From Candidatus Omnitrophota bacterium (GTDB lineage Bacteria; Omnitrophota; Gorgyraeia; Zapsychrales; JANLHA01), in contig OY759724.1 in NCBI GenBank assembly GCA_963662715.1, positions 3,030,001 through 3,062,000 of the forward strand: a stretch of DNA of 32,000 bases. The letters run 5' to 3'. This document shows, piece after piece, positions 5,990-28,024 of the stretch; within the stretch, counting starts at the first letter, position 1, and the number at the start of each line of letters is the position of its first letter. Below the pieces are notes generated by a model. It ran no database searches. It had not been told where the DNA came from and saw only the letters and a list, made by a program, of their open reading frames with translations. The position numbers and the translations under genes are program-made.

Positions 5990-6002
5990 GAAAGATTAAA
6001 TT

Positions 6003-6716: not shown

Positions 6717-6739
6717 AGCAATAAAGGAGAAAGAGTTCA

Positions 6740-8392: not shown

Positions 8393-9414
8393 TGGAACAA
8401 GAATTTTATTCTCGATTATCACAAAAGGCATTATCAGGTGGGTTTTTAACAAAAGAGGATGCCGCTGCTATTTTGAGATCAGAAAAGATTGATCTGTTGC
8501 TATTGTTGAACGCGGCTTATAACGTCCGTAAAAAATATTTTAGCAATCAAGTTAAAATTCACGTTATTAATAATGTGCAAAATGGGCGTTGTTCTGAGGA
8601 TTGCCGGTATTGCGCTTAATCAAAAGAAGCGAATGCAAAAATAAATGAGTATCCCATGAAATCCGACGAGCGAATTATTCAGGAAGCGAAAAATGCTTAT
8701 GAAAACGGTGCGTTTCGATATTGCATGGTTTTTTCTGGCAAGCGAGTGTCAAAAAAACGGGCAGTACGTTTATCAAATTTAATCCGCAAAATCAAATCAA
8801 AATATCCTATTCAGGTTTGTGCTTCTCATGGGCAAGTCGATAAAGAAGTTGCATTGGTTTTAAAAGAAGCGGGTTTAAACAGAATAAATCATAATTTGAA
8901 CACATCACAGCGATATTACCCGCAAATTTGCACAACACATACTTATGAAGACAGGCTTGCGACTTTAAGAACCGCTCGTGAGGTCGGGCTTCAGATTTGT
9001 TCGGGCGTTATTATCGGAATGGGGGAGACAGTGGATGACATTTTTGAATCAGCCTGCGCGTTAAGAGATCTGAAAATAGAATCAATCCCGATAAATTATT
9101 TTATACCGATACCAGGAGTCAAGTTAGATATAAAACCCGATTTAAGCCCGGAATATTGTTTGCGAGTATTATCTCTTTATCGATTTTTAAATCCACGAGC
9201 GGAAATACGGGTAGCAGCAGGCTGGGAAATATATTTTCGAAGTATGCAGGTTATGGCCTTTTATCCGGCAAATTCTTTTTTTATGGAAGGATATCTTAAT
9301 AGTCAGGGGAGTTCCAAGAAGTTTATTTATCAAATGATTAAAGACGCTGGATTTAATATTAACTCTAATTACTCTTTGGATGAGCTTATTGAGGGAAGTC
9401 GAAAAAATGAATAA
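8392..9414 (+). pseudogene. bioB: Biotin synthase interrupted by one in-frame TAA (8617-8619)
   Basis: ORFs 8392..8619 and 8656..9414 are in the same frame. The N-terminal piece ends CSEDCRYCA-TAA-S, where BioB has CxxxCxYCxQS. The C-terminal piece has FRYCMVFSG, INHNLNTSQRYY...TTHTYEDRLATL and QICSGVIIGMGET, matching BioB. Confidence 0.85.
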
Positions 9415-10258
9415 AAATTTTGAAAAAGAAATACAGCAGGAAAAACGCCTTAAAGAAAATTTGGAGAAGATTAAAAATAAATTAATTGTTATCAGCGGTA
9501 AAGGCGGGGTCGGTAAAACAACTGTTGCTGTTAATTTGGCTTACGGGCTGGCTGTTAAAGGGAATAAGGTAGGTATTCTTGACGTGGATATCCACGGACC
9601 CAACATCGCAAAAATGCTGGGAATTGAAGGAAAAAAGCTGGAAGGTTCAGAAGCAGGTATTGAGCCAGTTGAAGTGCTGCCGAATTTAAAAGCTGTCAGT
9701 ATTGCTTTTTTGATAGAAGATCAGGATACCCCTATAGTCTGGAGAGGGCCGCTTAAAATGATTACTATCAAACAGTTTTTAAGTGATGTCAACTGGGGAA
9801 ATCTTGATTATTTAATAGTCGATTTTCCTCCTGGAACGGGTGATGAACCGCTAAGCGTTTGCCAGTTAATTCCGGATGTAAACGGTGCGATAGTCGTAAC
9901 GACTCCACAAGATGTTGCCATATTAGATTCAAGAAAGAGCGTTCAGTTTGCGAAAGAGTTAAAGATCCCGGTTTTAGGGATAATTGAAAATATGAGCGGT
10001 TTTGTATGCCCTCATTGCGAAAAGGAGATTGATTTGTTCGGCACCGGGGGTGGAGAAAAAGCCGCTCACGACTTGAAAGTTCCTTTTATGGGTAAAATTC
10101 CTATGGAACCTGAAATGGTGAAGTCAGGGGATTCAGGGCAACCGTTTATTCATTTTAAAAATGAGACAAAAACAGCGAGTGTTATGAATGAAATAATCAA
10201 TTATATTAGCGACTGTTTGGAAAATAATGAAAAGTTCAAAAAAGTGCATATGGTTTGA
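9407..10258 (+). CDS. mrp: Mrp/NBP35 (ApbC) family Fe-S cluster carrier ATPase
   Basis: It has the deviant Walker [20 protein letters not shown] and the cluster-bridging CPHC motif. ATG 9407 (with GAGGGA 9 nt upstream) is preferred over the track start 9380, which lies inside bioB. Confidence 0.9.
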
Positions 10259-10430
10259 TGTGTGTCCGCTTAAGAGGTTTTATGCGCAGGGCAAATTGGA
10301 TAAAAAATGGATTGAGGATTATTGTTTTGGTGATTTTTTAAAATGTACACGATATAAAATGGAACAAGAAGGTGTTTTTCATCCCGATAATATGATGCCT
10401 GACGGCACAATAGACAAGAGGTTTAAATGA
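10227..10430 (+). CDS. Small Cys-rich protein (67 aa), conserved hypothetical
   Basis: [13 protein letters not shown]...[29 protein letters not shown] resembles a small family I recall from Clostridia and methanogens, which I believe is often mis-annotated. It overlaps both neighbours (mrp end and radical-SAM start). Confidence 0.55.
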
Positions 10431-11203
10431 ATCAGAAAAAATATAAATATATTTATGGTCCGGTTCCTTCCTGGAGATTAGGCAGTTCTTTGGGAATTGA
10501 TCCGGTCTCAAAAGGAAGAAAAATATGCAGTTTTGACTGTATCTATTGTCAGATTGGAAAAGCCGGTTTAATGACAGATGAGCGGGGAATTTTTATTAAT
10601 TGTAGCGATATTATCGAAGAGATTGATTCATTGCCGCCTTTAAAAATTGATTATATTACATTTTCCGGAGCCGGAGAACCGACTCTGGCAGCTAATTTAG
10701 GCAAGATGATAAAAGCTGTGAGGCAGATTAGGAAAGAAAAAGTTGCGGTTATCTCCAATTCTTTTTTATTTTGTAAGGAAGATGTAAGAAGAGATTTACA
10801 ATTAGCGGATTTTGTTATAGCAAAACTTGATGCACCCACACAGGAAGTATTAACGGCTATTAATCAGCCGATAAAAACAATTGATATCGAAAAAATAATC
10901 TCGGGAATAAAGACGTTTAAGAAAATGTATAAAGGAAAATTGGCGTTGCAAATCATGTTTATTGAAAAAAATAAGGAATTTGCCGAAGATATCGCACAGA
11001 TTGCCAGGGAGATTAATCCGGACGAAGTCCAAATCAATACTCCGCTTCGACCATGCGGAGTAAGGCCTTTGCCTGAATTTGAAATTGATAAAATTGAATC
11101 GCTTTTCGAGGGGTTAAAAACTGTTTCTGTATATAAAGCGGAAAGAAAAAAGATTCGTCCACTCAGCGATGAGGAGACATTGAAAAGAAGAGGAAAAATA
11201 TAG
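10427..11203 (+). CDS. Radical SAM protein (small, archaeal-type YGPVPSxRLGxSLGI family)
   Basis: The CxxxCxxC motif is present in the sequence SFDCIYCQIG. The N-terminus is YGPVPSWRLGSSLGIDP, and ITFSGAGEPTL provides the GGE-like SAM motif. Confidence 0.8.
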   Translation: MNQKKYKYIYGPVPSWRLGSSLGIDPVSKGRKICSFDCIYCQIGKAGLMTDERGIFINCSDIIEEIDSLPPLKIDYITFSGAGEPTLAANLGKMIKAVRQIRKEKVAVISNSFLFCKEDVRRDLQLADFVIAKLDAPTQEVLTAINQPIKTIDIEKIISGIKTFKKMYKGKLALQIMFIEKNKEFAEDIAQIAREINPDEVQINTPLRPCGVRPLPEFEIDKIESLFEGLKTVSVYKAERKKIRPLSDEETLKRRGKI

Positions 11204-11679
11204 TGTTTGTTTTTAAAATTAAAAAATACCCGGAAAAAGTTTTACGGGAAAAATGCCGACCAGTACAGGCCGTCACAGAAAGAGAAAAGAATATTTTTCA
11301 GAAAATGTTGCGCACAATGTATCATTTCAAAGGTATAGGGCTGGCAGCTCCCCAAGTAGGCATTACAGAAAGATTGATTGTTGCCGATATCGGTGAAGGT
11401 GCGGTGACTTTAGCTAATCCGCAGATAATTAACGTGAAAGAAAATGATGAGTTAGAAGAAGGTTGCTTAAGTATCCCTCAAGCACAAGTCAATGTATTAA
11501 GGAGTTATGAAATAACGGTTAATGGATTAAATGAAAAAGGAGAATTGCAAGAGATGAAGGTCAAAGGCTTGATGGCGAGAGTGCTTCAGCATGAAATTGA
11601 TCATTTAGAAGGGAAAATGATTATTGATTATTTCCCTTTATGGGAAAAAATTAAATTTGGAATAAACCGAAAGAGGTAA
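11203..11679 (+). CDS. def: Peptide deformylase
   Basis: All three PDF motifs are present: GIGLAAPQVG, EGCLS and HEIDHL. It has a GTG start overlapping the upstream stop. Confidence 0.95.
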   Translation: MFVFKIKKYPEKVLREKCRPVQAVTEREKNIFQKMLRTMYHFKGIGLAAPQVGITERLIVADIGEGAVTLANPQIINVKENDELEEGCLSIPQAQVNVLRSYEITVNGLNEKGELQEMKVKGLMARVLQHEIDHLEGKMIIDYFPLWEKIKFGINRKR

Positions 11680-11680
11680 T

Positions 11681-11947
11681 ATGCCGACTTATCAATATTT
11701 ATGTGAATCTTGTGGCCACCAGTTTGAAAAAATGCAGGGAATGACGGATCCGCGGCTTAAAGTTTGCCCTAAGTGCGGGAAAACTTTAAGCAGATTAATA
11801 GGAACAGGAGGAGGAATTATTATCAAAGGAAGCAGATCCACAATGAGTAATTTAAAAAATGATTTTTCTTCGGGACAAACTTGCTGTGGAAGAGAAGAAC
11901 GCTGCGATACTCCTCCATGTTCGGATGATGGTGTATGTAAAAGGTGA
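11681..11947 (+). CDS. FmdB-family zinc-ribbon protein (CxxC_CxxC_SSSS type)
   Basis: MPTYQYLCESCGHQFE...VCPKCG is the family signature. The C-terminal tail is Cys-rich. Confidence 0.85.
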   Translation: MPTYQYLCESCGHQFEKMQGMTDPRLKVCPKCGKTLSRLIGTGGGIIIKGSRSTMSNLKNDFSSGQTCCGREERCDTPPCSDDGVCKR

Positions 11948-11954
11948 AATCGAT

Positions 11955-12704
11955 ATGGATTTAGCAATTCATCAGCTTATCTATTTTTTGATCGGCTTTG
12001 GGTCGGGGTGGGCTAGCGGCATGTTTGGGATAGGAGGAGGCTCTATAAGGACACCGTTGCTTTATTTTGCCGGTTTACCGTTACGGTCCGCATTCGGTAT
12101 TAATTTTATTGTGATTCCCTTTTCTTCCTTTACGGGCGCATTAACCCATAAAAGAAACATCGCGAACGAAATAGGGATTTGGGTAATTATTGCTGGTGTT
12201 TTTGGTGAATTACTGGGTGCGTATCACGTAGGTCTTATTCCGGTTAAATTTTTAACAATTATATATGTCATTATTTGTTTTGTTGTGGTCTTCGGTATTT
12301 TGAAGGAAAGAATATTTTCTGTTTTTGCCAAAACAAAACAAGCTGACAAAAAAACATTTGCTATAGCTTCATTTTTTGTAAGTTATATTACTGGTCTGAG
12401 GGGCGGAAGCGGAGGACAAATTTTTCCGGCACTTTTTAAAACATTGGGAATGGAAACACGTCAGTCTATTGCTACATCACTGGTCGTATCAATGTTTACT
12501 GCTCTCGGCGCAATTCCTATATATTGGGCAAGAGGAGATTTAGTTTGGTTGCCGGCCATATCGGTTTTAATTGGTTCAATCATAGGAGCAAGAATGGGAA
12601 GCAAATTTTCTTTAAAAACAAAACCAGTATGGTTAGAAAACGGTCTTGCATTAGTTACCATAATTTTGGCCTTTTTAGTTTTGATTAAAGGAGTATTTCA
12701 ATAA
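11955..12704 (+). CDS. TauE/SafE-family anion (sulfite-type) exporter membrane protein
   Basis: It has FGIGGGSIRTPLL and a second half with LRGGSGGQIF, plus about 7-8 TM helices. ATG 11955 is chosen because the track start 11859 lies 89 nt inside the fmdB-like gene. Confidence 0.75.
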   Translation: MDLAIHQLIYFLIGFGSGWASGMFGIGGGSIRTPLLYFAGLPLRSAFGINFIVIPFSSFTGALTHKRNIANEIGIWVIIAGVFGELLGAYHVGLIPVKFLTIIYVIICFVVVFGILKERIFSVFAKTKQADKKTFAIASFFVSYITGLRGGSGGQIFPALFKTLGMETRQSIATSLVVSMFTALGAIPIYWARGDLVWLPAISVLIGSIIGARMGSKFSLKTKPVWLENGLALVTIILAFLVLIKGVFQ

Positions 12705-12729
12705 TGAATAATGAAAACAGGGGGATGGA

Positions 12730-14073
12730 ATGAAAAAAATAGTTGTAATAGGTTGTTCCGGTTGTGGCGCCATGGCGGCCTTAATGTTAAAAAAATTAAG
12801 ACCCTCTTTGGATGTAACAATAATCAGAGAGCCGGAAGAGAAGGGATTATTAACAAGGTGTGCAACACCCTATATCTGTTGCGGCGATGTGATGGTAGAT
12901 GCATCTTATAAAGATGATAATATTTTTACGGAACAAGGAATTAAATTAATAAGTATGAAAGCTGTAGATATATATAAGGATAAAAAGAATGTAAAAACAT
13001 CCGATGGAAATATTTATTCTTATGACAAACTTGTTTTGGCGACCGGCGCTAAACCTGTTATGCCTCCAGTCCCGGGAGTTAATTTGCCAGGGGTTTTTAC
13101 TCTCCGCACAAGCGGTGATGCCGTGAATATTCTTAATTGGATAAATTCTCAACGTGTAAAAAATGTTGTATTGGTAGGTGCCGGTGCAATAGGTATTGAG
13201 AAGGCCTATTTGCTTTCCCGCCGGGGTCTTAAAGTGACACTTGTGGAAATGCAAGCTCATGTTATGCCAACTATTTTAGATAGTGATATGAGTGAAGATT
13301 TGCAGACCTATATGTTGCAGAAAGGCGTGCATCTGAAATTAAATAAAAAGATAATTTCAATTAATGGTCAGGAACATGTGGAGGGAATAAAGCTGGATTC
13401 AGGTGAAGAAATAAACGCGGAAATGGTGGTTATTTCAGCAGGGGCGCGTTGCAATATTGAACTTGCTAAAAATGCGGGATTAGATTTGGGTGATCTTGGG
13501 TTAAAAGTTGATGATTATTTACAAACTTCGGACTCTGATATATTTGCCGGAGGAGATCTTATAGAATACAAAAATCATATTACGGGCAAGCCCATGCTTG
13601 GACAATTACGTCCAAACGCCGTAATTGCGGGCAGGATTATTGCCAAAAATATTTTAGGTTTTGATATTAAATATCCTTCTTTAATTAATAGTTTTTGCAC
13701 TAAATTTTTTGATAAATCAATGGCCGGAGCAGGTATGACCGAATTTGAGGCAAAACAGGAAGGTATTGAAGTTATTGCCGCAAAACAAAAATCTACAAGT
13801 ATGCATTCTATGATGAGAGAGCGCAAGCCGTATGTTGTTAAATTGATATTTGATAAACAAAGTCAAAAATTAATAGGCGGGCAAATTGTCAGTGATTCCG
13901 AGTGCCCGGTAAAATCCATTGATGTTATTGCGATGGCTATAAAATGTAATTTGAAAATATTGGATTTAATTACTTTTAGAGGAGCGGGCCAACCGGAGTT
14001 GTCTCCTGACCCCGGCAAGGAACCCATAGCGTTAGCAGCTGAGAATGTTTTTGCTAAATTGCACAATGGTTAG
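12730..14073 (+). CDS. Pyridine nucleotide-disulfide oxidoreductase, CoA-disulfide reductase / NADH oxidase (single-Cys) family
   Basis: The FAD fold is KIVVIGCSGCGAMAA. The single redox Cys in RCATPY aligns with the (S/N)CxLPY of Nox/CoADR. The NAD fold is VVLVGAGAIGIE...VTLVE, and GGD follows near the C-terminal FAD motif. Confidence 0.8.
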   Translation: MKKIVVIGCSGCGAMAALMLKKLRPSLDVTIIREPEEKGLLTRCATPYICCGDVMVDASYKDDNIFTEQGIKLISMKAVDIYKDKKNVKTSDGNIYSYDKLVLATGAKPVMPPVPGVNLPGVFTLRTSGDAVNILNWINSQRVKNVVLVGAGAIGIEKAYLLSRRGLKVTLVEMQAHVMPTILDSDMSEDLQTYMLQKGVHLKLNKKIISINGQEHVEGIKLDSGEEINAEMVVISAGARCNIELAKNAGLDLGDLGLKVDDYLQTSDSDIFAGGDLIEYKNHITGKPMLGQLRPNAVIAGRIIAKNILGFDIKYPSLINSFCTKFFDKSMAGAGMTEFEAKQEGIEVIAAKQKSTSMHSMMRERKPYVVKLIFDKQSQKLIGGQIVSDSECPVKSIDVIAMAIKCNLKILDLITFRGAGQPELSPDPGKEPIALAAENVFAKLHNG

Positions 14074-14079
14074 AAATTC

Positions 14080-14132
14080 TTGATTTATTTTTGCCTTGTG
14101 GTATTATCATATGCGAATATTTGAATATGATA
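14080..14132 (+). promoter_or_regulatory. Sigma70-like promoter with overlapping inverted-repeat operator upstream of arsR-family gene
   Basis: TTGATT (14080-85), a 16-nt spacer and TG-n-TATTAT (extended -10, 14099-14107) form the promoter. The 8-bp inverted repeat TATCATAT (14105-12) / ATATGATA (14125-32) has a 12-nt spacer and overlaps the -10. AAGGAGG precedes the ATG at 14149. Confidence 0.55.
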
Positions 14133-14148
14133 ATAAAGGAGGCGTGAA

Positions 14149-14424
14149 ATGAATACTTTAAAAAACAAAAAAATTTCTAATTTTTTCAATGCTCTTTCGC
14201 ATCCTGTTCGGGTCGAGATAGTCACCGAGTTATTAAAAGGGACAAAATGTGTCAGCGATATTAAAGAGCTTATAGCGATAAATCAGCCTAATGTTTCTCA
14301 GCATTTATCTATTTTGAAAGCAAAAAATATTGTGGATTGGCAACAGGAAGGTAAAAGGAAGTGTTATTTTTTAAAGAAACCAAAATTAATAAAAAATATT
14401 TTAAACGCACTGCAAAAATTATAA
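14149..14424 (+). CDS. ArsR/SmtB-family winged-helix transcriptional regulator
   Basis: ALSHPVRVEIVTELLKGTKCVSDIKELIAINQPNVSQHLSILKAKNIV is the canonical ArsR HTH region. Only one Cys occupies the ELCVCDL-equivalent position. Confidence 0.9.
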   Translation: MNTLKNKKISNFFNALSHPVRVEIVTELLKGTKCVSDIKELIAINQPNVSQHLSILKAKNIVDWQQEGKRKCYFLKKPKLIKNILNALQKL

Positions 14425-14440
14425 ATAATCGAAGGAAAAA

Positions 14441-14764
14441 ATGCATAAAGTAAATACTAAAAAATGTCTTGGATGCGGGGTATGCATTAATAGTTGTCCT
14501 CAAGGGGCTATATTTATAATCGACGATAAAGCAAGTATTGACTCAGTTAAATGCATTGATTGTGGCAGGTGTGTTCAAGCTTGCCCGCAAGGTGCAATTT
14601 ATTCAGATGGCTCATCAAAGCAGGAGATTATTCCCGGGCAGTCTGTAATGTCTTCAGGATTTGGAATGGGAGGTGGCCAAGGACGCGGTAGGGGGCGTGG
14701 TTTAGGAAGATGCTTGCGCGATGGGAGAGGAAAAGGCAGAGGTGGTGGGGGCAGGAGAAGATAA
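14441..14764 (+). CDS. 2x[4Fe-4S] ferredoxin fused to a Gly/Arg-rich (RGG) C-terminal tail
   Basis: CLGCGVCINSCP and CIDCGRCVQACP are followed by GFGMGGGQGRGRGRGLGRCLRDGRGKGRGGGGRRR. Confidence 0.85.
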   Translation: MHKVNTKKCLGCGVCINSCPQGAIFIIDDKASIDSVKCIDCGRCVQACPQGAIYSDGSSKQEIIPGQSVMSSGFGMGGGQGRGRGRGLGRCLRDGRGKGRGGGGRRR

Positions 14765-14793
14765 ATTTTTAACTAATATTATGGAGGTCAAAA

Positions 14794-15144
14794 ATGCCAT
14801 GGATTAAAGAAGAAAAATGTGTTAGCTGCGGAATTTGTATTGAAAAATGCCCGGTAGATGCTATTTCAATGCAAACTGAAAAAGCACAGATCAATATGGA
14901 GAAGTGTATCCATTGTGGGACATGTCACAGTGTTTGTCCGCAGGAGGCGGTTAGGCACGACGGAGAGAAAATACCTCAATATATAGAACTTAATGTTGAG
15001 AAGACAAAAAAGTTTATGGATCTTTGTGCCAAACATTTAGGTTCGGAAGATGAGGGGAAAAAATGTTTGGAAAGGATGAAAAAAATTTTTAACAAAGAAA
15101 AGCTTATTATAGAAAAAACATTAGAAGAGCTTGATAAATTATAG
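14794..15144 (+). CDS. 2x[4Fe-4S] ferredoxin with helical C-terminal extension
   Basis: CVSCGICIEKCP and CIHCGTCHSVCP are followed by a K/E-rich extension of about 55 aa. Confidence 0.85.
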   Translation: MPWIKEEKCVSCGICIEKCPVDAISMQTEKAQINMEKCIHCGTCHSVCPQEAVRHDGEKIPQYIELNVEKTKKFMDLCAKHLGSEDEGKKCLERMKKIFNKEKLIIEKTLEELDKL

Positions 15145-19585: not shown

Positions 19586-19903
19586 ATGGAAGTTATTTTG
19601 ACTGATGAAAACTTCGAACAAGAAATAATTAAATCGGATTTGCCATGTTTGGTTGATTTTGGCGCCGATTGGTGTGCGCCTTGCCGCATGGTCGCACCAA
19701 TAATGAAATCAATTGCAAAAGAGTATCAAGGAAAACTGAAGGTTGGCACAGTCAATGTGGATCAAGCACCTAAGACTGCTTCTAAATACGGTATTACAAG
19801 TATTCCCGCATTGTTTCTTTTTAAGAATGGCAAAATAGTCAACAAGGCCGTTGGTGCGGCTCCAAAAGAACAGGTGGTTTCTATGTTTAAAGAATACATA
19901 TAA
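19586..19903 (+). CDS. trxA: Thioredoxin
   Basis: It has the WCAPCRM active site, the cis-Pro region SIPALFLFKNG, and a typical length of 105 aa. Confidence 0.93.
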   Translation: MEVILTDENFEQEIIKSDLPCLVDFGADWCAPCRMVAPIMKSIAKEYQGKLKVGTVNVDQAPKTASKYGITSIPALFLFKNGKIVNKAVGAAPKEQVVSMFKEYI

Positions 19904-19931
19904 ATCAGGATTTAAAGAGGAGGTGTAATTT

Positions 19932-20135
19932 ATGCTTTTTTCATATGAATGCCAAAAGTGCGGACATACATTCGACCTTTTAATCGGTATGACCATGGAA
20001 AAACCGAAGATGGAATGTCCCAAGTGTCAGAGCAAAAATATCGTCAAGCTCATTTCGAAACCCAGCATAAAGATAAATAAATCCGATTCGGGAGGCAGTT
20101 GTTCGACAGGGACTTGTCCGACCTGTATCCCTTAG
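19932..20135 (+). CDS. FmdB-family zinc-ribbon protein (second copy in window)
   Basis: YECQKCGHTFD...ECPKCQS is followed by a C-terminal SGGSCSTGTCPTC tail. Confidence 0.8.
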   Translation: MLFSYECQKCGHTFDLLIGMTMEKPKMECPKCQSKNIVKLISKPSIKINKSDSGGSCSTGTCPTCIP

Positions 20136-20158
20136 TTTTATGAAGTGAGGAATATCTA

Positions 20159-20701
20159 GTGATTAACAGTATTGAATTATGCCTGAAACATAACGGAAGG
20201 GTGGACGGAAAAAAGAAGCTTTTATTTAAGCCGGGGCTTAATATTGTTATTGGCCCTAATGGCTCCGGGAAAAGTTCATTGTTAGAAGCTATCTATAACT
20301 GTCCGGATTGTATAAAACATAATAACGATAAAATGAGATATCATTATTTTAATAGTGAAACGATGAATCCGCATAGATCTGAAAAGCATTTTAAAGGAAT
20401 CAGCGGATCGATTATTCGTGTGCGTGCCATGTTTTCATCTCACGGAGAAACAATGAGGGATGTTTTAAGATATATTAATTTTCACCCCGGCGATTGCCTG
20501 CTTCTTGATGAACCCGAATCAGGGCATGATTTAAAATGGATTTTAAAAATTCGCAAAGGGTTGGATGCAATTTGCAAGAAGGGAACACAGGTTATTATTG
20601 CAACACATCACCCGGTGTTTTGGAATGCGGACAATATTATTGAATTAAAAAAAAATTATCTTAAGAAAACATTAAACACATTAAAGAAGAATCTTCCTTG
20701 A
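20159..20701 (+). CDS. Minimal (180 aa) ABC/SMC-like P-loop ATPase
   Basis: It has Walker A GPNGSGKSS, a signature-like FSSHGE, Walker B LLLDEPESG and an H-loop ATHH. It has a GTG start with GAGGAA upstream. Confidence 0.7.
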   Translation: MINSIELCLKHNGRVDGKKKLLFKPGLNIVIGPNGSGKSSLLEAIYNCPDCIKHNNDKMRYHYFNSETMNPHRSEKHFKGISGSIIRVRAMFSSHGETMRDVLRYINFHPGDCLLLDEPESGHDLKWILKIRKGLDAICKKGTQVIIATHHPVFWNADNIIELKKNYLKKTLNTLKKNLP

Positions 20702-20719
20702 TTAAAAGAGTCAAATTTT

Positions 20720-21100
20720 ATGAAAAATAATGGGAACATAAATATTTCTCAAAATAAGGAAAAACAGAAGCATAATCATCGGCATTCAATAAAGGAAAGG
20801 CTTTTTTTGTTTTTTAAATGGTGGCTTGTTTTTACCGGCATTTATTCCGTCTCTTCTGTATGCCCTTTTTGCGGGAAGGTAGGCTGCCCCGTTGGTCTCG
20901 GAAGCGCTGGGGCCCTTGGAGCCTTTTTTGCTTTATTTATGCAAAATTGGAAACACCTGTTGCAAAAAATTCATTTTTTAAAAAAGGAAAAAACAGAGGT
21001 AACGAAAAAATTCGAAAAAGAAAAATTTTTCGCTAAGGGAGGAGGGGGATATGGAAAAGAAGGATTTGATAATAATCGGCGCGGGTCCGGCAGGTCTTAG
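20720..21100 (+). CDS. Small membrane protein with CPFCGKVGCP motif (hypothetical)
   Basis: A basic N-terminus is followed by two hydrophobic segments flanking CxxCxxxxC. The 3' end overlaps the next gene by 50 nt, so the C-terminal tail and exact extent are uncertain. Confidence 0.45.
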   Translation: MKNNGNINISQNKEKQKHNHRHSIKERLFLFFKWWLVFTGIYSVSSVCPFCGKVGCPVGLGSAGALGAFFALFMQNWKHLLQKIHFLKKEKTEVTKKFEKEKFFAKGGGGYGKEGFDNNRRGSGRS

Positions 21101-21977
21101 TGCGGCAATTTGTGCGACGGATTTGGGCATTAAACCGCTAGTATTAGAAGAAAATATGCCCGGTGGTTTAGCCTCTGAGATTCCTGTGTTGGAAAACTAT
21201 CCGGGTTTTAGTGAAGGAATCAGCGGTAAAGATTTAATAGATAAATTGATTGAACAATGCAACAAAGCCTCGATAGAAATACATCAATTTGAAAAAGTTT
21301 TTAATCTGAAATTTGAAGCAGACGTAAAAATTATTGAAACAGATAAAGCTCAATATAGAACCAATATTGTACTTATTGCTTCCGGAAGGCATCTCAGCAT
21401 GCTTGGTGTTCCCGGTGAAAAAGAATTCAAGGGGAGAGGAGTAAGTTATTGCGCAGTATGCGACCGTGCTTTTTTTAAGGATAGGAAAGTGTCCGTTATC
21501 GGAAAAGATGTTCATGCTGTTGAAGTTGCTTTATATTTAGCTGAATTGGCATCATTAGTGAATTTTATAAATTTAGGTAATTGGCATAAGCCAAATGATA
21601 TTTTCCTGAAAAAATTAGAAGGCCGAAATATAAATGTTCTTTCCGGGGTTGAAGTGAAGGAAATCAATGGAGACATTAAAGTAAAAACTGTGGTTTTATC
21701 GGATAAGGAAACAGGAGATATTCGCGAGATAGAAACAGACGGAGTGTTTTTACAGTTAGAAGAGGAGCCTAATAGTCAATTAGCAAAAAATGCCGGTATA
21801 AAGGTAAACGAAAAAGGGTATATCCTTGTTGATGAGAAAGGAAAAACTAATTTGGATGGTGTTTATGCCGCTGGTGACGTGACGGATGGTTCGGTAAAAA
21901 AAGTAATAACATCTGCGGCCCAGGCATTTGTAGCTGTCAATGATATATTCGAGAAAAATCAAGGAAGGTTTCATTAA
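21051..21977 (+). CDS. Thioredoxin-reductase-like flavoprotein lacking NADPH-binding motifs (FFTR/DFTR-like)
   Basis: The FAD fold IIIGAGPAGLSAA, the redox CAVCD and the C-terminal GVYAAGDV are present. However, the NADPH GGGNxA motif reads GKDVHA, and HRRxxxR reads NLGNWHK. Confidence 0.85.
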   Translation: MEKKDLIIIGAGPAGLSAAICATDLGIKPLVLEENMPGGLASEIPVLENYPGFSEGISGKDLIDKLIEQCNKASIEIHQFEKVFNLKFEADVKIIETDKAQYRTNIVLIASGRHLSMLGVPGEKEFKGRGVSYCAVCDRAFFKDRKVSVIGKDVHAVEVALYLAELASLVNFINLGNWHKPNDIFLKKLEGRNINVLSGVEVKEINGDIKVKTVVLSDKETGDIREIETDGVFLQLEEEPNSQLAKNAGIKVNEKGYILVDEKGKTNLDGVYAAGDVTDGSVKKVITSAAQAFVAVNDIFEKNQGRFH

Positions 21978-21979
21978 AT

Positions 21980-23752
21980 ATGCAGGAAAAGCGCATAGGT
22001 GTTTTTATTTGTCATTGCGGTAAGAATATTGCCGGAGGTGTGGATATAAAGGCTCTTGTCGAAAGCTCAAGAAGTCTTAAGGGAGTCGTCTTTGTTACAG
22101 AAAATAAATTTTCCTGTTCTGAAGAAGGTCAGGTTGCTGTTCAGGGTGCCATAAAGCACGAGCGTTTAGACAGAATTATTGTTGCTGCTTGTGATCCTGG
22201 GTTGCATCTACTGACTTTTCAAAGGTGCGGGCAGAAAGCGGGAATAGATTCTGCCTTCGTAGATTTAATTGATATTAGAAAATGGACAATGCACAGTAGC
22301 CCTCATAAGGTTGATCCTCATCAAGCCTTAGAGAATTGCAAAAGACATATCGAACAAGCTGTAAAAAGGATGCGGTTAAAACGCAAAATCCCCAGGGTTA
22401 CTGTAAAAGTAAACTCTTCGGTTTTAGTTATCGGAGGAGGTGTCGCAGGATTAGAGGCCTCTTTAGATTTGGCGGATAAAGGATACAAAGTACATCTTGT
22501 TGAAAGGCTTGCGACCATCGGAGGCAAAATGGCCCTCCTTTATAAGGTCTTTCCTACAAATGATTGTGCGCCTTGTATATTAGCTCCCAAAACGGCGTAC
22601 GCGAATGTGCATCCGAATATAAATTTGTTGACAAATGCGGAAGTTCAAAGCGTGGAAGGGTATATAGGAAATTACACCGTTATCGTTAATCAAAAACCGC
22701 GTTACATTGACGAAAATAAATGTACTGGCTGTGGGTTATGTATAGAGAAGTGTCCCACAAAAATGGTTGATAACGAATTTTCCGCCGGAATTGGGGAACG
22801 CAAAGCCATCTATATTCCTTATGATCAGGCAATACCCAAAAAGGCAGTTATTGACAGTGCAAGTTGTCTGTATTTTAAAAAAGGGGCTTGCCGGTTATGC
22901 GAAAAAACCTGTCCGGCTCAGGCCGTAGATTTTGAACAACAGCCTAAGTCAATCAAGTTAAAAGTAGGCGCGATAATTGTTGCTACGGGTTTTGATGAAT
23001 ATAATCCTGTGTCGAAAACGGAGTATGGTTATGGACGTTACAAAAATGTTATCACCCAGTTTCAGCTAGCAAGATTTTTAGATATAGACGGCCCTACGAA
23101 AGGAAAACTTTTAAGACCTTCAGACGGCAAAGAACCTAAAAATATTGTTATGATTCAATGTGTGGGCTCAAGGGATGAAAATGCGAATAAATATTGTTCT
23201 GCTGTTTGTTGCATGTATGCCTTAAAGCACGCCCAGATAATAAAAGAGATGGTTTTGCCCAATACCGAAATTTATATTTGTTATATTGACATACGCACCG
23301 CAGGAAAAGATTTTGAGGAATATTATAAATATACAAGGGGATTGGGAATTAATTTTATTCGCGGAAGACCGGCTGAGATAGCAGAAAATGCCAAGACACG
23401 AAATCTTATTTTAAAAGTTGAAGATCCTGATATCAATGCCTTGATTAAAGTCGAAGCGGATTTAGTTGTGTTGTCCTGCGCGACTGTGCCTTCCAAAGGG
23501 ACACAAAATCTTGCCGGGATACTAGGGATACATTTGGATGAAAATGGATTTTTTAAAGAAGTCCATCCTAAACTGCGTCCGGTAGAAACGAATGTCCGCG
23601 GCATTTATATTTGCGGTTCTGCACAGGGCCCCAAAGATATTCCGAATTCAATTGTCCAGGCAAAAGCGGTGGCTTCCTGCGCGGATGGCGAACTAAGAAA
23701 AGGAGAATTAGAACTTCCCGAAGCTATTGTAAAAGCAAATAAAGTCCCTTAA
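21980..23752 (+). CDS. hdrA: Heterodisulfide reductase subunit A-like flavo-Fe-S protein
   Basis: It has the N-terminal IGVFICHCGKNIAG, the FAD fold VLVIGGGVAGLEASLDLA, the ferredoxin motifs CTGCGLCIEKCP and CRLCEKTCP, and GIYICGSAQGPKDI near the C-terminus. Confidence 0.88.
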   Translation: MQEKRIGVFICHCGKNIAGGVDIKALVESSRSLKGVVFVTENKFSCSEEGQVAVQGAIKHERLDRIIVAACDPGLHLLTFQRCGQKAGIDSAFVDLIDIRKWTMHSSPHKVDPHQALENCKRHIEQAVKRMRLKRKIPRVTVKVNSSVLVIGGGVAGLEASLDLADKGYKVHLVERLATIGGKMALLYKVFPTNDCAPCILAPKTAYANVHPNINLLTNAEVQSVEGYIGNYTVIVNQKPRYIDENKCTGCGLCIEKCPTKMVDNEFSAGIGERKAIYIPYDQAIPKKAVIDSASCLYFKKGACRLCEKTCPAQAVDFEQQPKSIKLKVGAIIVATGFDEYNPVSKTEYGYGRYKNVITQFQLARFLDIDGPTKGKLLRPSDGKEPKNIVMIQCVGSRDENANKYCSAVCCMYALKHAQIIKEMVLPNTEIYICYIDIRTAGKDFEEYYKYTRGLGINFIRGRPAEIAENAKTRNLILKVEDPDINALIKVEADLVVLSCATVPSKGTQNLAGILGIHLDENGFFKEVHPKLRPVETNVRGIYICGSAQGPKDIPNSIVQAKAVASCADGELRKGELELPEAIVKANKVP

Positions 23753-23786
23753 CTTTAATTATCGGTGATTTGAGAGGAGATCCGAC

Positions 23787-24041
23787 ATGTTAAAACAAGA
23801 ACAAGAAAAAATGGAAACAAAATGCAAGAAAATTATTGCGGAGCAGTTAGGAGTAAAATTCGAAGAATTAAAGCCAGATGCTTCTTTTGCTGATGATCTT
23901 GGTGCTGATTCTTTGGATTTGGTAGAACTTATTATGGCGTTAGAAGAAGAATTTAGTATTGAAATTCCTGATGAAGAAGCTGAAAAAATCAAAACAGTTG
24001 GCCAGGCAATAGAATATGTAAATAAAAGAATAGAGAAATAA
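23787..24041 (+). CDS. acpP: Acyl carrier protein (canonical AcpP-type)
   Basis: [65 protein letters not shown] is near-colinear with E. coli AcpP, including the DSL phosphopantetheine Ser. GAGGAG lies 7 nt upstream of ATG 23787 (alternative start ATG 23811). Confidence 0.93.
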
Positions 24042-24067
24042 ATATTTTAAAATCAGGAGGGACTGCC

Positions 24068-24337
24068 ATGGCAGAGGTTTATGTGGAAGAATTTATGTCA
24101 CCCGGATGTGTCGGTTGTCCGGTGGTAAAGGAAATGCTTAAAGTTTTATCAGAAGAAGTAACGGGCGAGGTAACGATAGAAGAAGTCGACATCACAGTTG
24201 ATACGGCACGGGCATCTCAATACGGCGTCATGTCTGTTCCGGCTATAGCTATTAACGGTGAGCTTAAATTTATGGGCGTGCCTAAAAAAGAAGAATTAAA
24301 GCAGGCGCTCGTTGAAGGGCTTAAGGCAGATGAATAG
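24068..24337 (+). CDS. Small thioredoxin/glutaredoxin-like redoxin (MJ0307/Thioredoxin_3-like)
   Basis: It has the active site GCVGCP, the cis-Pro region SVPAIAINGE, and a length of 89 aa. Confidence 0.8.
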   Translation: MAEVYVEEFMSPGCVGCPVVKEMLKVLSEEVTGEVTIEEVDITVDTARASQYGVMSVPAIAINGELKFMGVPKKEELKQALVEGLKADE

Positions 24338-24872
24338 TGAAGAAAAAAATAGTGATTTGGGAATAACGGTTTCCATATCGGAATGTGAGCCAAATTTTAA
24401 ATTTGAGGTTTTATCTCATCCTGATGCCAGCGGATTAAATGCCTGCTTCAATTGCGGGACATGTACGGCAGGATGTCCTATTCATGAAGTTTTTCCTGAA
24501 TATAACCCCAGGAAACTGGCAAAGATGGTAAAGCTTGGTATGAAAAAACAGGTTTTAAGCAGCCCCTATATTTGGTATTGCGCTACCTGTCATAATTGCG
24601 AACAACGCTGCCCCCAAAATGTTAAATTTTTCAATATTTTGAATGTCTTGAAAAATTTGGCAGCCAGACAAGGTTATGCGCCGTCCTGCTGGATTCAACA
24701 GACCGAACAAATAGCAAAAACAGGCATAGTCTTTCCGACAGAAGATAGTTGGATCAAAAGAAGACAGGAAATGTCTCTCCCTTTTTTAAATCTAGATGGG
24801 GAAAAGGCAAAGAGAATAATTGAATCAAGCGGGATGAATGAAATTAAATCGAAGGTTAATTTGAATGAGTAA
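24330..24872 (+). CDS. hdrC: Heterodisulfide reductase subunit C-like 2x[4Fe-4S] protein
   Basis: It has CFNCGTCTAGCP and CATCHNCEQRCP. ATG 24330 overlaps the upstream stop, whereas the track start 24312 is a TTG inside the upstream gene. Confidence 0.85.
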   Translation: MNSEEKNSDLGITVSISECEPNFKFEVLSHPDASGLNACFNCGTCTAGCPIHEVFPEYNPRKLAKMVKLGMKKQVLSSPYIWYCATCHNCEQRCPQNVKFFNILNVLKNLAARQGYAPSCWIQQTEQIAKTGIVFPTEDSWIKRRQEMSLPFLNLDGEKAKRIIESSGMNEIKSKVNLNE

Positions 24873-25740
24873 ATATGCTTTATTTTTAGGTTGCACGACC
24901 CCAACTCAGGTACCGCAGTATGAGTTGTCCGCAAGATGGGTTTGTAAATATTTTGGCATTGAATTAATCGATATTAAAGATTTTGTTTGCTGTGGTATTA
25001 ATCAGGTTAATCTGGATATTGAGACAGGTTTTTCCTTGGCAGCTATGAATTTGGCTTTAGCGGAATCCGAAAAATTAGATGTTTTAACGCTTTGCGCCGC
25101 CTGCACCGGCGCCCTGGCTGAAACAATCGAAAAACTGAAGGACGAAGCAAGCAGAGATAAAGTAAACAAAAAATTAAAGACGGTCGGATTAAAATATACA
25201 GGCCAATCTAAAGTAAAACATATATCGAGAGTTCTTTACGAAGATATCGGGTTAGAAACAATAAAAAAGGGAATAAAGAAAGATTTATCCGCACTGCATG
25301 TGGCACCTCATTACGGCTGCCATTATTTAAAACCAAAATCTGCTTTTGGTGATTTTGAAAAACCCGATAATCCCAAAAGGCTTCACCATCTCATTTCGGC
25401 TGCCGGGGCCCATCCTATTGAATATGAGACGCTTGGTTTATGCTGCGGGGGCAAAACTTTTCCTGTTACTAAAAATCTGGCTCATTCATTGGTACAAAAA
25501 AAGTTTGATAATTTGATGGATAAAGAAGCGGATGCGATGGTTCTTCAATGTCAGACTTGTTATCTTATGTATAGCGGCCAACAAAAAGAGATAAATGAAA
25601 ATTATGGCAAACGATATGATTTTCCGGTAATTCTGTATCCCCAGCTTCTCGGATTGGCTCTGGGCGCGGAGCCCAAGAAAGATTTAGGCCTTGATTTAAA
25701 CGAAATTTCAGTAAATCGAATTTTGGATAAGATATTATAA
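24865..25740 (+). CDS. hdrB: Heterodisulfide reductase subunit B-like protein (two CCG domains)
   Basis: The CCG-domain Cys patterns are FLGCT...VCCGIN...CAACTG and HYGCH...LCCGG...CQTC. It overlaps hdrC by 8 nt. Confidence 0.85.
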   Translation: MSKYALFLGCTTPTQVPQYELSARWVCKYFGIELIDIKDFVCCGINQVNLDIETGFSLAAMNLALAESEKLDVLTLCAACTGALAETIEKLKDEASRDKVNKKLKTVGLKYTGQSKVKHISRVLYEDIGLETIKKGIKKDLSALHVAPHYGCHYLKPKSAFGDFEKPDNPKRLHHLISAAGAHPIEYETLGLCCGGKTFPVTKNLAHSLVQKKFDNLMDKEADAMVLQCQTCYLMYSGQQKEINENYGKRYDFPVILYPQLLGLALGAEPKKDLGLDLNEISVNRILDKIL

Positions 25741-25769
25741 ATAAGCGGTAATTGTGACGGAGATAGTGC

Positions 25770-26456
25770 ATGAGCATAAAAGAAAATTATTTGAAAATTA
25801 GAAAAAAAATTCCGGATTATGTCCAGATAGTTTTAGCTGCCAAGATGAAGACTTCTGAAGAAATCAAAGAGGCTATTGATGCCGAAGCAACAATAATAGG
25901 TGAAAATTACGTACAGGAAGCTGAAAAAATATATGAGGCGTTAGGAGAAAAGGCTAAAAAAATTAAATGGCATATGATCGGTCCTTTGCAGAAAAATAAG
26001 ATTAACAAGGCAGTAAAAATTTTTGATTGTATTCAGACGGTTGATTCTATTGAACTCGCTGATGCTATACATAAAAGAGCTGAGGTAATAAAAAAAGAAA
26101 TGTCTGTTTTTATAGAGGTAAATATCGGCAACGAAATGACAAAGGCAGGCGTTAAACCGGAATACGGAGTGGTTGAAAAATTAGCGCTACATATCGCAGG
26201 ATTATTTTATTTAAAATTGGAAGGACTTATGACAATCGGCCCTAGAGTCGGCAACCCGGAAGACATCCGTCCATATTTCAAAGCAGTAAAAGAAATTTTT
26301 GATAAATTGCAGAGCGCGGGTATACCCAATACAGATTTAAAATATTTGTCCATGGGGATGTCCAATTCATACAAAATAGCCATTGAGGAGGGAGCGAATA
26401 TTATAAGGTTAGGAACTATTATTTTCGGAGCGCGCAAATGTGATTTAAGAAACTAA
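25770..26456 (+). CDS. yggS: YggS-family PLP-binding (PLP homeostasis) protein
   Basis: GENYVQEA, WHMIGPLQKNK and LSMGMSNSYKIAIEEGANIIRLGTIIFGAR are colinear with E. coli YggS. Confidence 0.9.
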   Translation: MSIKENYLKIRKKIPDYVQIVLAAKMKTSEEIKEAIDAEATIIGENYVQEAEKIYEALGEKAKKIKWHMIGPLQKNKINKAVKIFDCIQTVDSIELADAIHKRAEVIKKEMSVFIEVNIGNEMTKAGVKPEYGVVEKLALHIAGLFYLKLEGLMTIGPRVGNPEDIRPYFKAVKEIFDKLQSAGIPNTDLKYLSMGMSNSYKIAIEEGANIIRLGTIIFGARKCDLRN

Positions 26457-26494: not shown

Positions 26495-27124
26495 ATGAAA
26501 ATAAAACCATTTGAAGAACATGTGGATCAATATGAAGATTGGTTTGAGAAAAATTATTGGGTCTATCAGTCAGAACTTCAGGCAGTAAAAGAATTGTTGC
26601 CTAAGCAAGGAAACGGCATTGAAATTGGTGTAGGAAGCGGTCGTTTTGCAGATCCCTTGGGAATACGTTTAGGTGTTGAGCCTTCGCCTAAAATGAGAGC
26701 ACTGGCAAAAGCTCGAGGGATAGAAGTTATTGATGGAGTAGCCGAAGATATCCTTTTTAAAAATCCTCGATTTGATTTCGTGCTGATGGTCACAACGATC
26801 TGTTTTCTGGATGATATAGAAAAAGCATTTAAAAAAATCCATAGGATTCTAAACCCAAGCGGGCATTTGGTCATAGGATTTATCGATAAAAACAGCCCTG
26901 TTGGAAAGATTTACCAGAAACACAAAAACGAAAGCGAGTTCTATAAAGTTGCAACTTTCTATTCTGTAGATAAAGTTGTGTCTTATTTAAAAAATGCCGG
27001 ATTTAGCAACTTTGTATTTAAGCAGACTATTTTCAAAAATTTAAAAGAAATTAAAGACATTGAACCTATTCAGGATGGTTTTGGTGCGGGTTCTTTTGTC
27101 GTCATTAGAGCTTTAAAGGAATGA
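26495..27124 (+). CDS. Class I SAM-dependent methyltransferase
   Basis: Motif I is GIEIGVGSGRFA, followed by the post-I acidic residue and LNPSGHLVIGF (a Methyltransf_11-like layout). Confidence 0.8.
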   Translation: MKIKPFEEHVDQYEDWFEKNYWVYQSELQAVKELLPKQGNGIEIGVGSGRFADPLGIRLGVEPSPKMRALAKARGIEVIDGVAEDILFKNPRFDFVLMVTTICFLDDIEKAFKKIHRILNPSGHLVIGFIDKNSPVGKIYQKHKNESEFYKVATFYSVDKVVSYLKNAGFSNFVFKQTIFKNLKEIKDIEPIQDGFGAGSFVVIRALKE

Positions 27125-27128
27125 AGGT

Positions 27129-27488
27129 ATGAAAGTCGCAGTCATTGGAGCATCAAATAAACCGCATCGGTATTCTTATCAGGCTGTGGTTCTTTTAAAA
27201 GAAACAGGACACAAAGTTTATCCCATTCATCGAAAAATAAAAGAGATTGACGGGATTCCAGTTGTTCCAACCATTGAAGAGGTTAATGACTTAATTGATA
27301 CGGTTACATTGTATATAAATGCTGTTTTTTCTAATGCTATCGGCAAAGATATTATTGCTAAAAAGCCCAAAAGAATAATTTTTAATCCCGGAGCTGAGAA
27401 TCTGGAATTAGCAAATGAGGCGAGAGAGCAGGGTATAGATACAATTAATGCCTGCACATTAGTTATGCTAAAAACAGGTCAGTTTTAA
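27129..27488 (+). CDS. CoA-binding domain protein (YccU/CoA_binding_2-like)
   Basis: KVAVIGASNKPHRYSYQAVVLLKETGHKVYPIHRK...IDGIPV...FNPGAEN...GIDTINACTLVML matches the family layout. Confidence 0.8.
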   Translation: MKVAVIGASNKPHRYSYQAVVLLKETGHKVYPIHRKIKEIDGIPVVPTIEEVNDLIDTVTLYINAVFSNAIGKDIIAKKPKRIIFNPGAENLELANEAREQGIDTINACTLVMLKTGQF

Positions 27489-27685: not shown

Positions 27686-28024
27686 ATGCTGGAAACAAAT
27701 TTGAAACATTTAGAAACAAAAGATGAGGTAGAAGAATTATTAAAAAATAATGAAAAAGTCATGATTTGCTGTGGCCGAATGGGGCCGATGTGTATTCCTG
27801 TTTATGGGATTATGGAAAAATTAGAATCGCAATATTCACAGATTCAGTTCAGGGATATGGATTTTGATATCCCTGTTGCCTCTTTTATTAAAGATTTGCC
27901 CGAATGTGCTTCGTTTACGGGATTGCCTTTTACGGTCTATTTTAAGAACGGATCGATCGTTAAGGCGACAACCAGCATTCAGAATGAAAAGCAAATAGTT
28001 GATATTTTAGAAAAAATTTTTTAG
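27686..28024 (+). CDS. Thioredoxin-fold protein with atypical CGRMGPMC site
   Basis: The length and secondary-structure-like pattern fit Trx (VMICCGRMGPMCIPV...LPFTVYFKNG). The Cys pair is spaced C-x6-C rather than CxxC. Confidence 0.65.
   Translation: MLETNLKHLETKDEVEELLKNNEKVMICCGRMGPMCIPVYGIMEKLESQYSQIQFRDMDFDIPVASFIKDLPECASFTGLPFTVYFKNGSIVKATTSIQNEKQIVDILEKIF

Follow-up and report, generated by a model that had tools for sequence, protein, structure and literature searches.

A conserved gene module linking a thioredoxin reductase-like flavoprotein and a small thioredoxin to HdrABC in uncultured bacterial lineages

The five-gene module and its distribution

The subject of this report is a set of redox genes in a 32,000-nucleotide stretch of the genome of a Candidatus Omnitrophota bacterium (assembly GCA_963662715.1, contig OY759724.1, positions 3,030,001 to 3,062,000 of the forward strand), which we term the window. 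The reference locus, positions 19586-26456 on the plus strand, was delineated using an open reading frame (ORF) map, and its products were assigned to families through profile searches with Pfam and NCBIfam (Table 1). A preliminary description, prepared from the sequence alone, had recognized here a thioredoxin system embedded in an Hdr-like operon, with a thioredoxin reductase-like (TrxR-like) flavoprotein devoid of NADPH motifs, a small CxxC redoxin and an acyl carrier protein (ACP) as prospective partners of HdrABC. Its gene list, the spacing, the 2-nucleotide (nt) junction between the TrxR-like gene and hdrA, and the loss of the NADPH motifs were all reproduced by the ORF map and sequence motifs, and the profiles confirmed every family assignment. 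The ACP and the classical thioredoxin TrxA score above their equivalog cutoffs; for the TrxR-like protein, the small thioredoxin and each of the three Hdr subunits the matches are clear but fall short of the cutoff. Based on the comparisons described below, the functional unit of this locus is predicted to be a soluble five-protein redox module, comprised of the TrxR-like flavoprotein, HdrA, an 89-residue thioredoxin with a CVGC motif, HdrC and HdrB.

We read the gene contexts of nine members of the motif-less TrxR-like clade, along with those recovered by a reverse look-up from two HdrA homologues, and found the same order of the genes for TrxR-like protein, HdrA, small thioredoxin, HdrC and HdrB in all of these contexts but one. 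This gives ten independent loci besides the window (L088, L089, L091/L092, L003/L004, L096, L005, L095, L093/L094, L097 and L098), distributed over several phyla that include the Omnitrophota, the Aminicenantes (L093/L094) and WOR-3 (L097). Over these loci the products span 303-308 (TrxR-like), 590-597 (HdrA), 87-91 (thioredoxin), 165-180 (HdrC) and 291-300 (HdrB) amino acids (aa). The intergenic distances within the module are mostly from -11 to +17 nt, that between the TrxR-like gene and hdrA is 2-5 nt in five of the ten loci, and the flanking genes vary from one locus to the next. Thus, the TrxR-like flavoprotein and the small CxxC thioredoxin stand up as syntenic partners of HdrABC; of the arrangement trxB-hdrA-acpP-trx-hdrCB envisaged earlier, five genes are retained throughout, and acpP is lineage-restricted. 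At least 20 further TrxR-like/HdrA pairs, along with many of the small thioredoxins, have longest contigs of equal size across the three search tables, which we take to mean that they share contigs.

A metagenome contig scan using an 18-sequence alignment of TrxR-like proteins furnished a negative control. All 80 returned loci encode canonical TrxRs; none has an HdrA neighbor, and about eight have a trxA neighbor. Even the one at 50% identity (L008) has the canonical motifs (GGGNSA/HRRNQLR). A scan of genome contigs with a single TrxR-like query recovered just two unrelated Prevotellaceae TrxRs, the search patterns being too specific. The module is abundant in metagenomes, with at least 250 clusters (at 90% identity) of its marker thioredoxin, and its hosts belong to phyla without a cultured model, such as Omnitrophota, Aminicenantes, WOR-3, Aureabacteria and Latescibacteria.

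The eleven genes from trxA to yggS had earlier been regarded as a single transcription unit on account of their spacing. The successive gaps are indeed small (28, 23, 18, -50, 2, 34, 26, -26, -8 and 29 nt). However, the window contains about 45 consecutive plus-strand genes, with 42 of 53 intergenic gaps of 40 nt or less and a median gap of 20 nt. Such tight co-directional packing is a property of the whole window, and spacing alone therefore cannot delimit an operon within it. A pattern scan for promoters and terminators found nothing convincing between the genes, with fewer matches than in shuffled sequences, and neither supports nor refutes co-transcription. The window as a whole (1-32000) displays an extreme strand bias, a GC skew that stays positive (0.11-0.32) across all 1-kb bins, and a GC content of 32-42%. 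The larger operon is also not borne out by comparative data, because the set of trxA, Zn-ribbon and ATPase genes is linked to the module in Omnitrophota only. There it is conserved in L088, L089, L091 and the further relative L001 at a variable distance, with 4.7-7 kb of variable genes separating it from the TrxR-like gene in L089 and L091.

Table 1. Features of the reference locus and recurrent methyltransferase genes (coordinates in the window unless a locus is named; bits with model cutoff)
Feature	Coordinates	Strand	Profile match
trxA, classical thioredoxin TrxA (WCAPC)	19586-19903	+	TIGR01068 114.7 bits (cutoff 96.8)
FmdB-type zinc-ribbon protein	19932-20135	+	Zn_ribbon_8 1e-12
SMC/ABC-like P-loop ATPase, 180 aa	20159-20701	+	AAA_21 6e-14
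Cys-rich putative membrane ORF, 126 aa	20720-21100	+	no Pfam or NCBIfam match
TrxR-like flavoprotein, 308 aa	21051-21977	+	Pyr_redox_2 5.6e-44; TIGR01292 278.6 bits (cutoff 343)
hdrA, 590 aa	21980-23752	+	HdrA2 model 696 bits (cutoff 1100)
ACP, 84 aa, DSLD motif	23787-24041	+	AcpP equivalog 120.8 bits (cutoff 106)
small thioredoxin, 89 aa, CVGC	24068-24337	+	Thioredoxin_3 4.7e-15; TIGR00411 74.8 bits (cutoff 92.75)
hdrC (2x[4Fe-4S])	24312-24872	+	Fer4_8/Fer4_17; TIGR03290 1.4e-30, 106 bits (cutoff 160)
hdrB, 291 aa	24865-25740	+	CCG x2 2.3e-20; TIGR03288 240.6 bits (cutoff 345)
yggS, YggS-family pyridoxal phosphate-binding protein, downstream neighbor	25770-26456	+	Ala_racemase_N 2.9e-20
S-adenosylmethionine (SAM) methyltransferase	26495-27124		
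SAM methyltransferase, L003	12401-12964		
SAM methyltransferase, L095	7312-7869		
SAM methyltransferase, L096	12519-13076		
SAM methyltransferase, L098	3476-4033		

Proteins of the module and their neighbors

The TrxR-like gene is the first of the conserved module and has a GGAGG ribosome-binding site before its ATG. The protein displays the FAD motif GAGPAG and the redox disulfide CAVC, and the two elements of the NADPH site are replaced, with GKDVHA in lieu of GGGxxA and NLGNWHK in lieu of HRRxxxR. Its homologues number in the thousands; among the best 120, HRRxxxR is missing from 103 and the CxxC is invariant in all 120; no canonical TrxR (GGGNAA/HRRSQLR, from Bathyarchaeota) exceeds 53% identity. 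In the motif-less clade K, N, D or E freely take the place of the second Gly of GxGxxA, from which it follows that this position is no longer constrained to contact the pyrophosphate of a dinucleotide. The pattern of conserved and lost residues shows a predicted enzyme that retains FAD binding and the CAVC dithiol but is released from the constraints for pyridine-nucleotide binding. An assignment to the NADPH-dependent TrxB/NTR family was considered and rejected, as the NADPH-site motifs are gone and the TIGR01292 score lies below the cutoff (Table 1).

The AlphaFold2 model of the TrxR-like protein (pLDDT 81) has the two-domain fold of low-molecular-mass TrxRs, with low confidence at the NWHK loop, and in a fold search it matched the TrxRs of Thermosipho africanus and Escherichia coli with a TM score of 0.83. 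In the 18-sequence alignment the tail beyond residue 298 is not conserved. Flavin TrxRs that use ferredoxin instead of NADPH as the source of electrons are established, and the DTR and FFTR types have a C-terminal tail with a conserved aromatic residue that stacks on the FAD (PMC8154056). With its unconserved tail, the TrxR-like protein cannot hold such a conserved aromatic residue; as it is also closer to NTRs in sequence, the loss of its NADPH site is best described as a predicted independent event and the protein as lying outside the FFTR/DTR clade.

When clade-specific residues were sought as marks of an interface with HdrA, only I44, E158 and L236 were found to differ from the canonical neighbors. 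Cys70 was discarded as a mark of the clade, being common to canonical TrxRs and hence uninformative. The HRRxxxR position itself is variously occupied: a sub-clade of motif-less proteins from Latescibacteria, Aminicenantes and others has a Cys-x5-Cys (CGKEELC) exactly there, in the main sub-clade a lone Cys occurs (CLRPRIE), and the lineage of the window has none.

HdrA contains an N-terminal FeS domain, a FAD domain and an inserted 2x[4Fe-4S] ferredoxin domain, and is strongly related to methanogen HdrA, with E-values of 1e-176 (9sfi_A) to 5e-173 (5odc_A) and a further match to 8rvu. The methanogen chains, of 654-658 aa, are aligned only up to about residue 575-583, where their C-terminal ferredoxin domain begins; the HdrA of the window ends at residue 590 and is devoid of this 2x[4Fe-4S] domain. 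In methanogen HdrA the C-terminal ferredoxin domain links MvhD to the flavin and takes the electrons of MvhD or FdhB. An exact look-up of the HdrA of the window returned no record; its closest 120 homologues (73-95% identical, 565-599 aa) belong to Omnitrophota, Aminicenantes, WOR-3, Aureabacteria, Theseobacteria and Acidobacteriota. Across all 121 sequences, the equivalents of Lys409 and Cys197 are kept, that of Glu356 is Ala (Ala364 in the window), and that of the adjacent Glu354 is Gln. Lys409 is thought to stabilize the reduced flavin and Glu356 to position Lys409, and it has been suggested that the presence of the two distinguishes bifurcating HdrA from the non-bifurcating kind (PMC12054007). 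The clade thus appears to represent a distinct type of HdrA, whose capacity to bifurcate is uncertain because Glu356 is replaced throughout.

In HdrB, which matches methanogen HdrB with an E-value of 1.5e-57 (9sfi_C), all ten Cys of the two CCG motifs are invariant in the ten loci. These Cys are the ligands of two noncubane [4Fe-4S] clusters at the disulfide-reducing site. The eight cluster Cys of HdrC are likewise invariant in the ten loci, and with all the cluster ligands of both subunits in place a working disulfide-reducing site is to be expected. The longest ORF of hdrC starts from a TTG at 24312. Judging from the relatives, translation probably begins instead at the ATG at 24330; this would give a protein of 180 aa and an 8-nt overlap with the stop of the thioredoxin gene, the same overlap as in L088, L091 and L003.

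The gene of the small, MJ0307-like thioredoxin overlaps hdrC and is always placed between it and hdrA. The protein is the more conserved of the two partners, being 68-100% identical across phyla versus 50-93% for the TrxR-like protein, and the signature EEFMSPGC[VT]GCP is kept in ten of ten loci, with one Val-to-Thr substitution inside the CxxC (L096). A database search recovered 257 clusters, of which the 120 listed measure 87-91 aa and include no fusions. These features make it the best candidate for a dedicated dithiol partner of HdrABC. Most loci additionally have a gene with a classical thioredoxin domain near the module. TrxA itself is a neighbor of the module in Omnitrophota and a candidate substrate of the TrxR-like protein, and such trxA-type thioredoxins are probably clients.

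The status of the ACP is different. Its gene is found intact between hdrA and the thioredoxin gene solely in the window, L088 and L089, whose TrxR-like identities are 94% (L088) and 81% (L089). It is absent from seven of the ten other loci (L003, L005, L093, L095, L096, L097 and L098). In L091 (12761-12952) and L092 (7003-7194) the same slot is occupied by an ACP pseudogene, identical in sequence in the two independent assemblies, which has no start codon, an in-frame TAG and Phe for the phosphopantetheine Ser (DSL to DFL, DFLD), and around which the genes for HdrA, thioredoxin, HdrC and HdrB are intact. The ACP of the window (GADSLD) has the PP-binding fold and the DSL serine, and is assigned to the AcpP family by its score. 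Its decay amid intact hdr genes in L091/L092 and its absence from seven distant loci indicate a lineage-specific insert that is predicted to be dispensable for the module, and its earlier designation as an Hdr partner is not upheld. The ACP, TrxA, Zn-ribbon protein and ATPase are accordingly neighbors and not subunits.

The 126-aa ORF directly upstream of the TrxR-like gene, with which it shares 50 nt, is predicted to contain a membrane segment, carries the motif CPFCGKVGCP and has a homologue in L088. In L001 and L089 its slot holds instead a gene for a 2x[4Fe-4S] ferredoxin of 95-101 aa, 14 nt upstream of the TrxR-like gene, and L091 has a ferredoxin in the corresponding position, with a CbiA-Fer4 gene intervening before the TrxR-like gene. 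In L001 and the related L002 (73% identity; several samples), which represent one Omnitrophota lineage, the region from hdrA through most of yggS, including the genes for ACP, thioredoxin, HdrC and HdrB, has been deleted. A 45-codon remnant of yggS follows right after the intact TrxR-like gene (8903-9037 in L001, 1371-1505 in L002). The ferredoxin, TrxR-like and trxA genes remain intact, the last of these further upstream. This deletion implies that the TrxR-like protein can persist with a ferredoxin and a thioredoxin in the absence of this Hdr.

Functional interpretation and its alternatives

Comparison with the known systems helps place the module. Like the methanogen MvhAGD-HdrABC and Fdh-HdrABC complexes (PDB 5odc, 9sfi, 8rvu and 7bkb), it has an HdrA homologous over three domains with Lys409 and Cys197, both CCG motifs of HdrB and both [4Fe-4S] motifs of HdrC. 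It differs from them in that its HdrA is devoid of the C-terminal ferredoxin domain and has Ala for Glu356, its Hdr subunits score under the equivalog cutoffs (Table 1), and a TrxR-like protein and a thioredoxin are encoded in place of MvhD, hydrogenase or formate dehydrogenase. Moreover, its bacterial hosts are not expected to make coenzymes M or B. With the FFTR and DTR enzymes (PDB 6gna, 5j60 and 6xtf) the TrxR-like protein shares the low-molecular-mass fold, FAD, the CxxC and the lack of NADPH-binding residues, and the 2x[4Fe-4S] ferredoxin gene adjacent to it in some relatives makes an Fe-S protein a plausible reductant. It departs from them in its greater proximity to NTRs, in its unconserved tail and in being encoded by the first gene of an hdrABC cluster. 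Other low-molecular-mass TrxRs independent of pyridine nucleotides are the deazaflavin-dependent TrxR and the Thermoplasma TrxR (3cty).

FlxABCD-HdrABC of sulfate reducers and other anaerobes, whose Flx part comprises an NADH-oxidizing module and the MvhD-like FlxD, offers the parallel of a bacterial HdrABC with a flavoprotein partner that is not a hydrogenase. However, there are no flxABCD or mvhD genes beside the module in the window or in any locus read, and the partner here has no NAD(P)H site. In the sHdr-LbpA systems of sulfur oxidizers, too, an Hdr-like complex has a small carrier protein dedicated to it, and DsrE/TusA neighbors occur in some of our loci. Unlike in those systems, the HdrA of the module has 590 aa as against about 350, there is a single hdrBC pair, lbpA, lipoate and lipoyl-domain genes are absent, and the carrier is a thioredoxin. 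The match to sHdrA (6tjr) reaches only 7.5e-40, as against 1e-176 for methanogen HdrA. With no flx, lbpA or second hdrBC, the module falls outside the Flx-Hdr and sHdr clades, in support of the preliminary description.

These comparisons suggest that the module is an Hdr-type complex with a new set of partners, in effect a bacterial heterodisulfide reductase that acts on protein thiols, and the central idea of a thioredoxin system coupled to Hdr is supported by the five-gene synteny. We tentatively favor, with somewhat less than even confidence, a pyridine-nucleotide-independent, Fe-S-fed complex in which the TrxR-like protein stands in for Mvh or Flx and thioredoxins are the thiol partners. 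The TrxR-like protein would sit on HdrA where the hydrogenase/MvhD (or Flx) module otherwise binds, its FAD exchanging electrons with the Fe-S clusters of HdrA or with free ferredoxin, as in FFTR, and would pass electrons via the CAVC to a thioredoxin. The HdrBC arm would reduce a second disulfide at the noncubane clusters, the best candidate for this substrate being the co-translated small thioredoxin, and ferredoxin would serve HdrA as a low-potential partner, at its inserted ferredoxin domain. The net result would be a coupling of ferredoxin-level electrons to protein dithiol/disulfide exchange without NAD(P)H. A more specific version, which we regard as rather doubtful, is that the "heterodisulfide" of this HdrABC is itself protein in nature, making the complex a ferredoxin:thioredoxin oxidoreductase with two dithiol arms, one through the TrxR-like protein and its CAVC and the other through HdrB and the small thioredoxin, possibly operating by bifurcation or confurcation. 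If true, a thiol substrate would be defined for a bacterial HdrABC for the first time, and a low-molecular-mass TrxR would be seen to receive electrons in a new manner, from a built-in Fe-S flavoprotein rather than by NADPH, free ferredoxin or F420H2.

Several observations weigh against the Fe-S-fed complex. Many members of the clade retain a formal GxGxxA, so that a dinucleotide or deazaflavin donor that we do not recognize could still serve them. In sequence the NADPH-dependent TrxRs (5e-53) are closer to the TrxR-like protein than FFTR/DTR are (3e-34 to 6gna, 7e-34 to 5j60). It is the gene order that suggests a physical contact of HdrABC with the TrxR-like protein or the small thioredoxin. 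As L001 suggests, ferredoxin may reduce the TrxR-like protein directly; HdrABC would then be unneeded for the reduction of thioredoxin and the reason for the coupling unexplained. In methanogen HdrB the substrate lies between the two clusters in a buried site, and it is not obvious how the CxxC of a folded thioredoxin would reach it. Finally, the DsrE, TusA and TauE neighbors in several loci point to sulfur compounds and not to thioredoxin clients.

This last observation leads to an alternative that we consider unlikely, namely that the module is a reductase of sulfane sulfur, persulfide or polysulfide, in which HdrBC acts on a persulfide, trisulfide or thiosulfonate carried by DsrE/TusA-type sulfurtransferases. 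The TrxR-like protein and the small thioredoxin would then resolve mixed disulfides, with ferredoxin electrons being dumped on sulfur, or reactive sulfur being detoxified. A DsrE gene indeed precedes the TrxR-like gene by 13 nt in L003 and is found within 2.5 kb in L089 and L091; in L005 it occurs together with TusA downstream of the module. Genes for TauE and a flavoprotein related to CoA-disulfide reductase adjoin the module in L003 and lie 7 kb upstream of it in the window (11859-14073). Regulators of the ArsR family adjoin the module in L096 and L005 and precede trxA in L001, L089 and L091, and SLAC1/TehA-type channels are encoded in L089, L091 and L096. In established systems, moreover, sHdr is fed by DsrE/TusA cascades (PMC11094781). 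However, neither DsrE nor TusA is found in the window or in the flanks read of L093, L095, L096, L097 and L098, and hence they do not belong to the core. No sulfurtransferase is among the invariant partners, which consist of a thioredoxin and a TrxR-like enzyme, and the LbpA and second HdrBC pair expected of an sHdr are absent. We deem it still less likely that the module is a true bifurcating complex, in which a dithiol (thioredoxin) or an unrecognized cofactor reduces the TrxR-like protein as a mid-potential input and HdrA splits the electron pair between ferredoxin and the HdrB disulfide, or works in reverse. Such a scheme draws on the retention of three arms as in Mvh-Hdr (donor module, inserted ferredoxin domain and HdrBC), on Lys409 and the shared-cluster Cys197 of the 121 HdrA sequences, on the position of the TrxR-like gene, which is that of a donor module and is translationally coupled to hdrA where the gap is 2-5 nt, and on the recurrence of two types of thioredoxin near the module. 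It is opposed by the clade-wide Ala at the position of Glu356, the proposed mark of bifurcation (PMC12054007), by the lack of a known physiological rationale or known potentials for thioredoxin-driven ferredoxin reduction, and by the survival of the TrxR-like protein without Hdr in L001.

In the version first proposed, trxA through hdrB constitute one system and the phosphopantetheine thiol of the ACP is a carrier or substrate of Hdr, akin to LbpA. The intact DSLD-bearing ACP in the same slot of the window, L088 and L089 would fit this, as would the 19 synonymous and 11 non-synonymous codon changes between the ACP genes of the window and L089 and the presence in the window of the CoA-related genes for the CoA-disulfide reductase-like protein (12730-14073) and CoA_binding_2 (27129-27488). 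Set against the absence of the ACP from seven of ten other loci, its decay in place beside intact hdr genes in L091/L092 and its ordinary AcpP score, this leaves the proposal very improbable. The least credible explanation is that an ordinary thioredoxin system and an ordinary Hdr have come to lie side by side by chance in a compact, single-strand genome. The co-directional, tightly packed genes of the whole window and the survival of the TrxR-like gene without Hdr in L001 would be in keeping with it. However, it is contradicted by a five-gene order that stays constant across phyla while the flanks differ, by the recovery of the same partners in the reverse look-up from HdrA, and by the 80 canonical TrxR loci, none of which has an HdrA neighbor.

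Returning to the thioredoxin-linked Fe-S complex, its gene composition appears to be undescribed, in keeping with the preliminary description: in the searchable literature we found no account of hdrABC combined with a thioredoxin gene and a TrxR-like gene of its own, though there may be an earlier mention. The literature that pairs "thioredoxin reductase" with HdrA concerns the fold of HdrA itself. What HdrABC-like complexes act on outside methanogens has been an open question for a long time. Given a dedicated and highly conserved thioredoxin and a TrxR-like protein without a pyridine-nucleotide site, this question becomes testable with five small soluble proteins. Given its abundance in metagenomes, the module may in anoxic sediments and aquifers be one of the main routes of thiol redox supply. 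It would also add a distinct lineage to the small set of NADPH-independent thioredoxin reductases.

The surrounding redox island

The upstream part of the window (719-15144) encodes two Nitro_FeMo-Co proteins, a thioesterase, two CbiA/ParA+Fer4 proteins, and DUF169, ARMT1-like, MBL and radical-SAM proteins, as well as TauE, the CoA-disulfide reductase-like protein (447 aa), ArsR and two ferredoxins. In L003, genes for DUF169, ParA, TauE, a Pyr_redox_dim protein and DsrE lie directly upstream of the module; a fused 612-aa CbiA-Fer4 protein is encoded in L091, L097 and L098, and a Nitro_FeMo-Co protein in L095. With several of these families found again next to it in other phyla, the module lies within a loosely conserved anaerobic redox island. 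A small class-I SAM methyltransferase of 185-209 aa recurs in unrelated lineages, its gene adjoining the module in L003, L095, L096 and L098 and lying near it in the window (Table 1). Further downstream in the window (27686-28024) is an ORF of 112 aa with a CCGRMGPMC motif, which gives sub-threshold, full-length matches to the Thioredoxin and DIM1 families (E-values of 0.03-0.08). It lies beside TrmO in all the Omnitrophota relatives, and a homologue is found immediately upstream of a canonical TrxR gene in L061 (9601-9969). This ORF may encode a third protein with the thioredoxin fold in the region.

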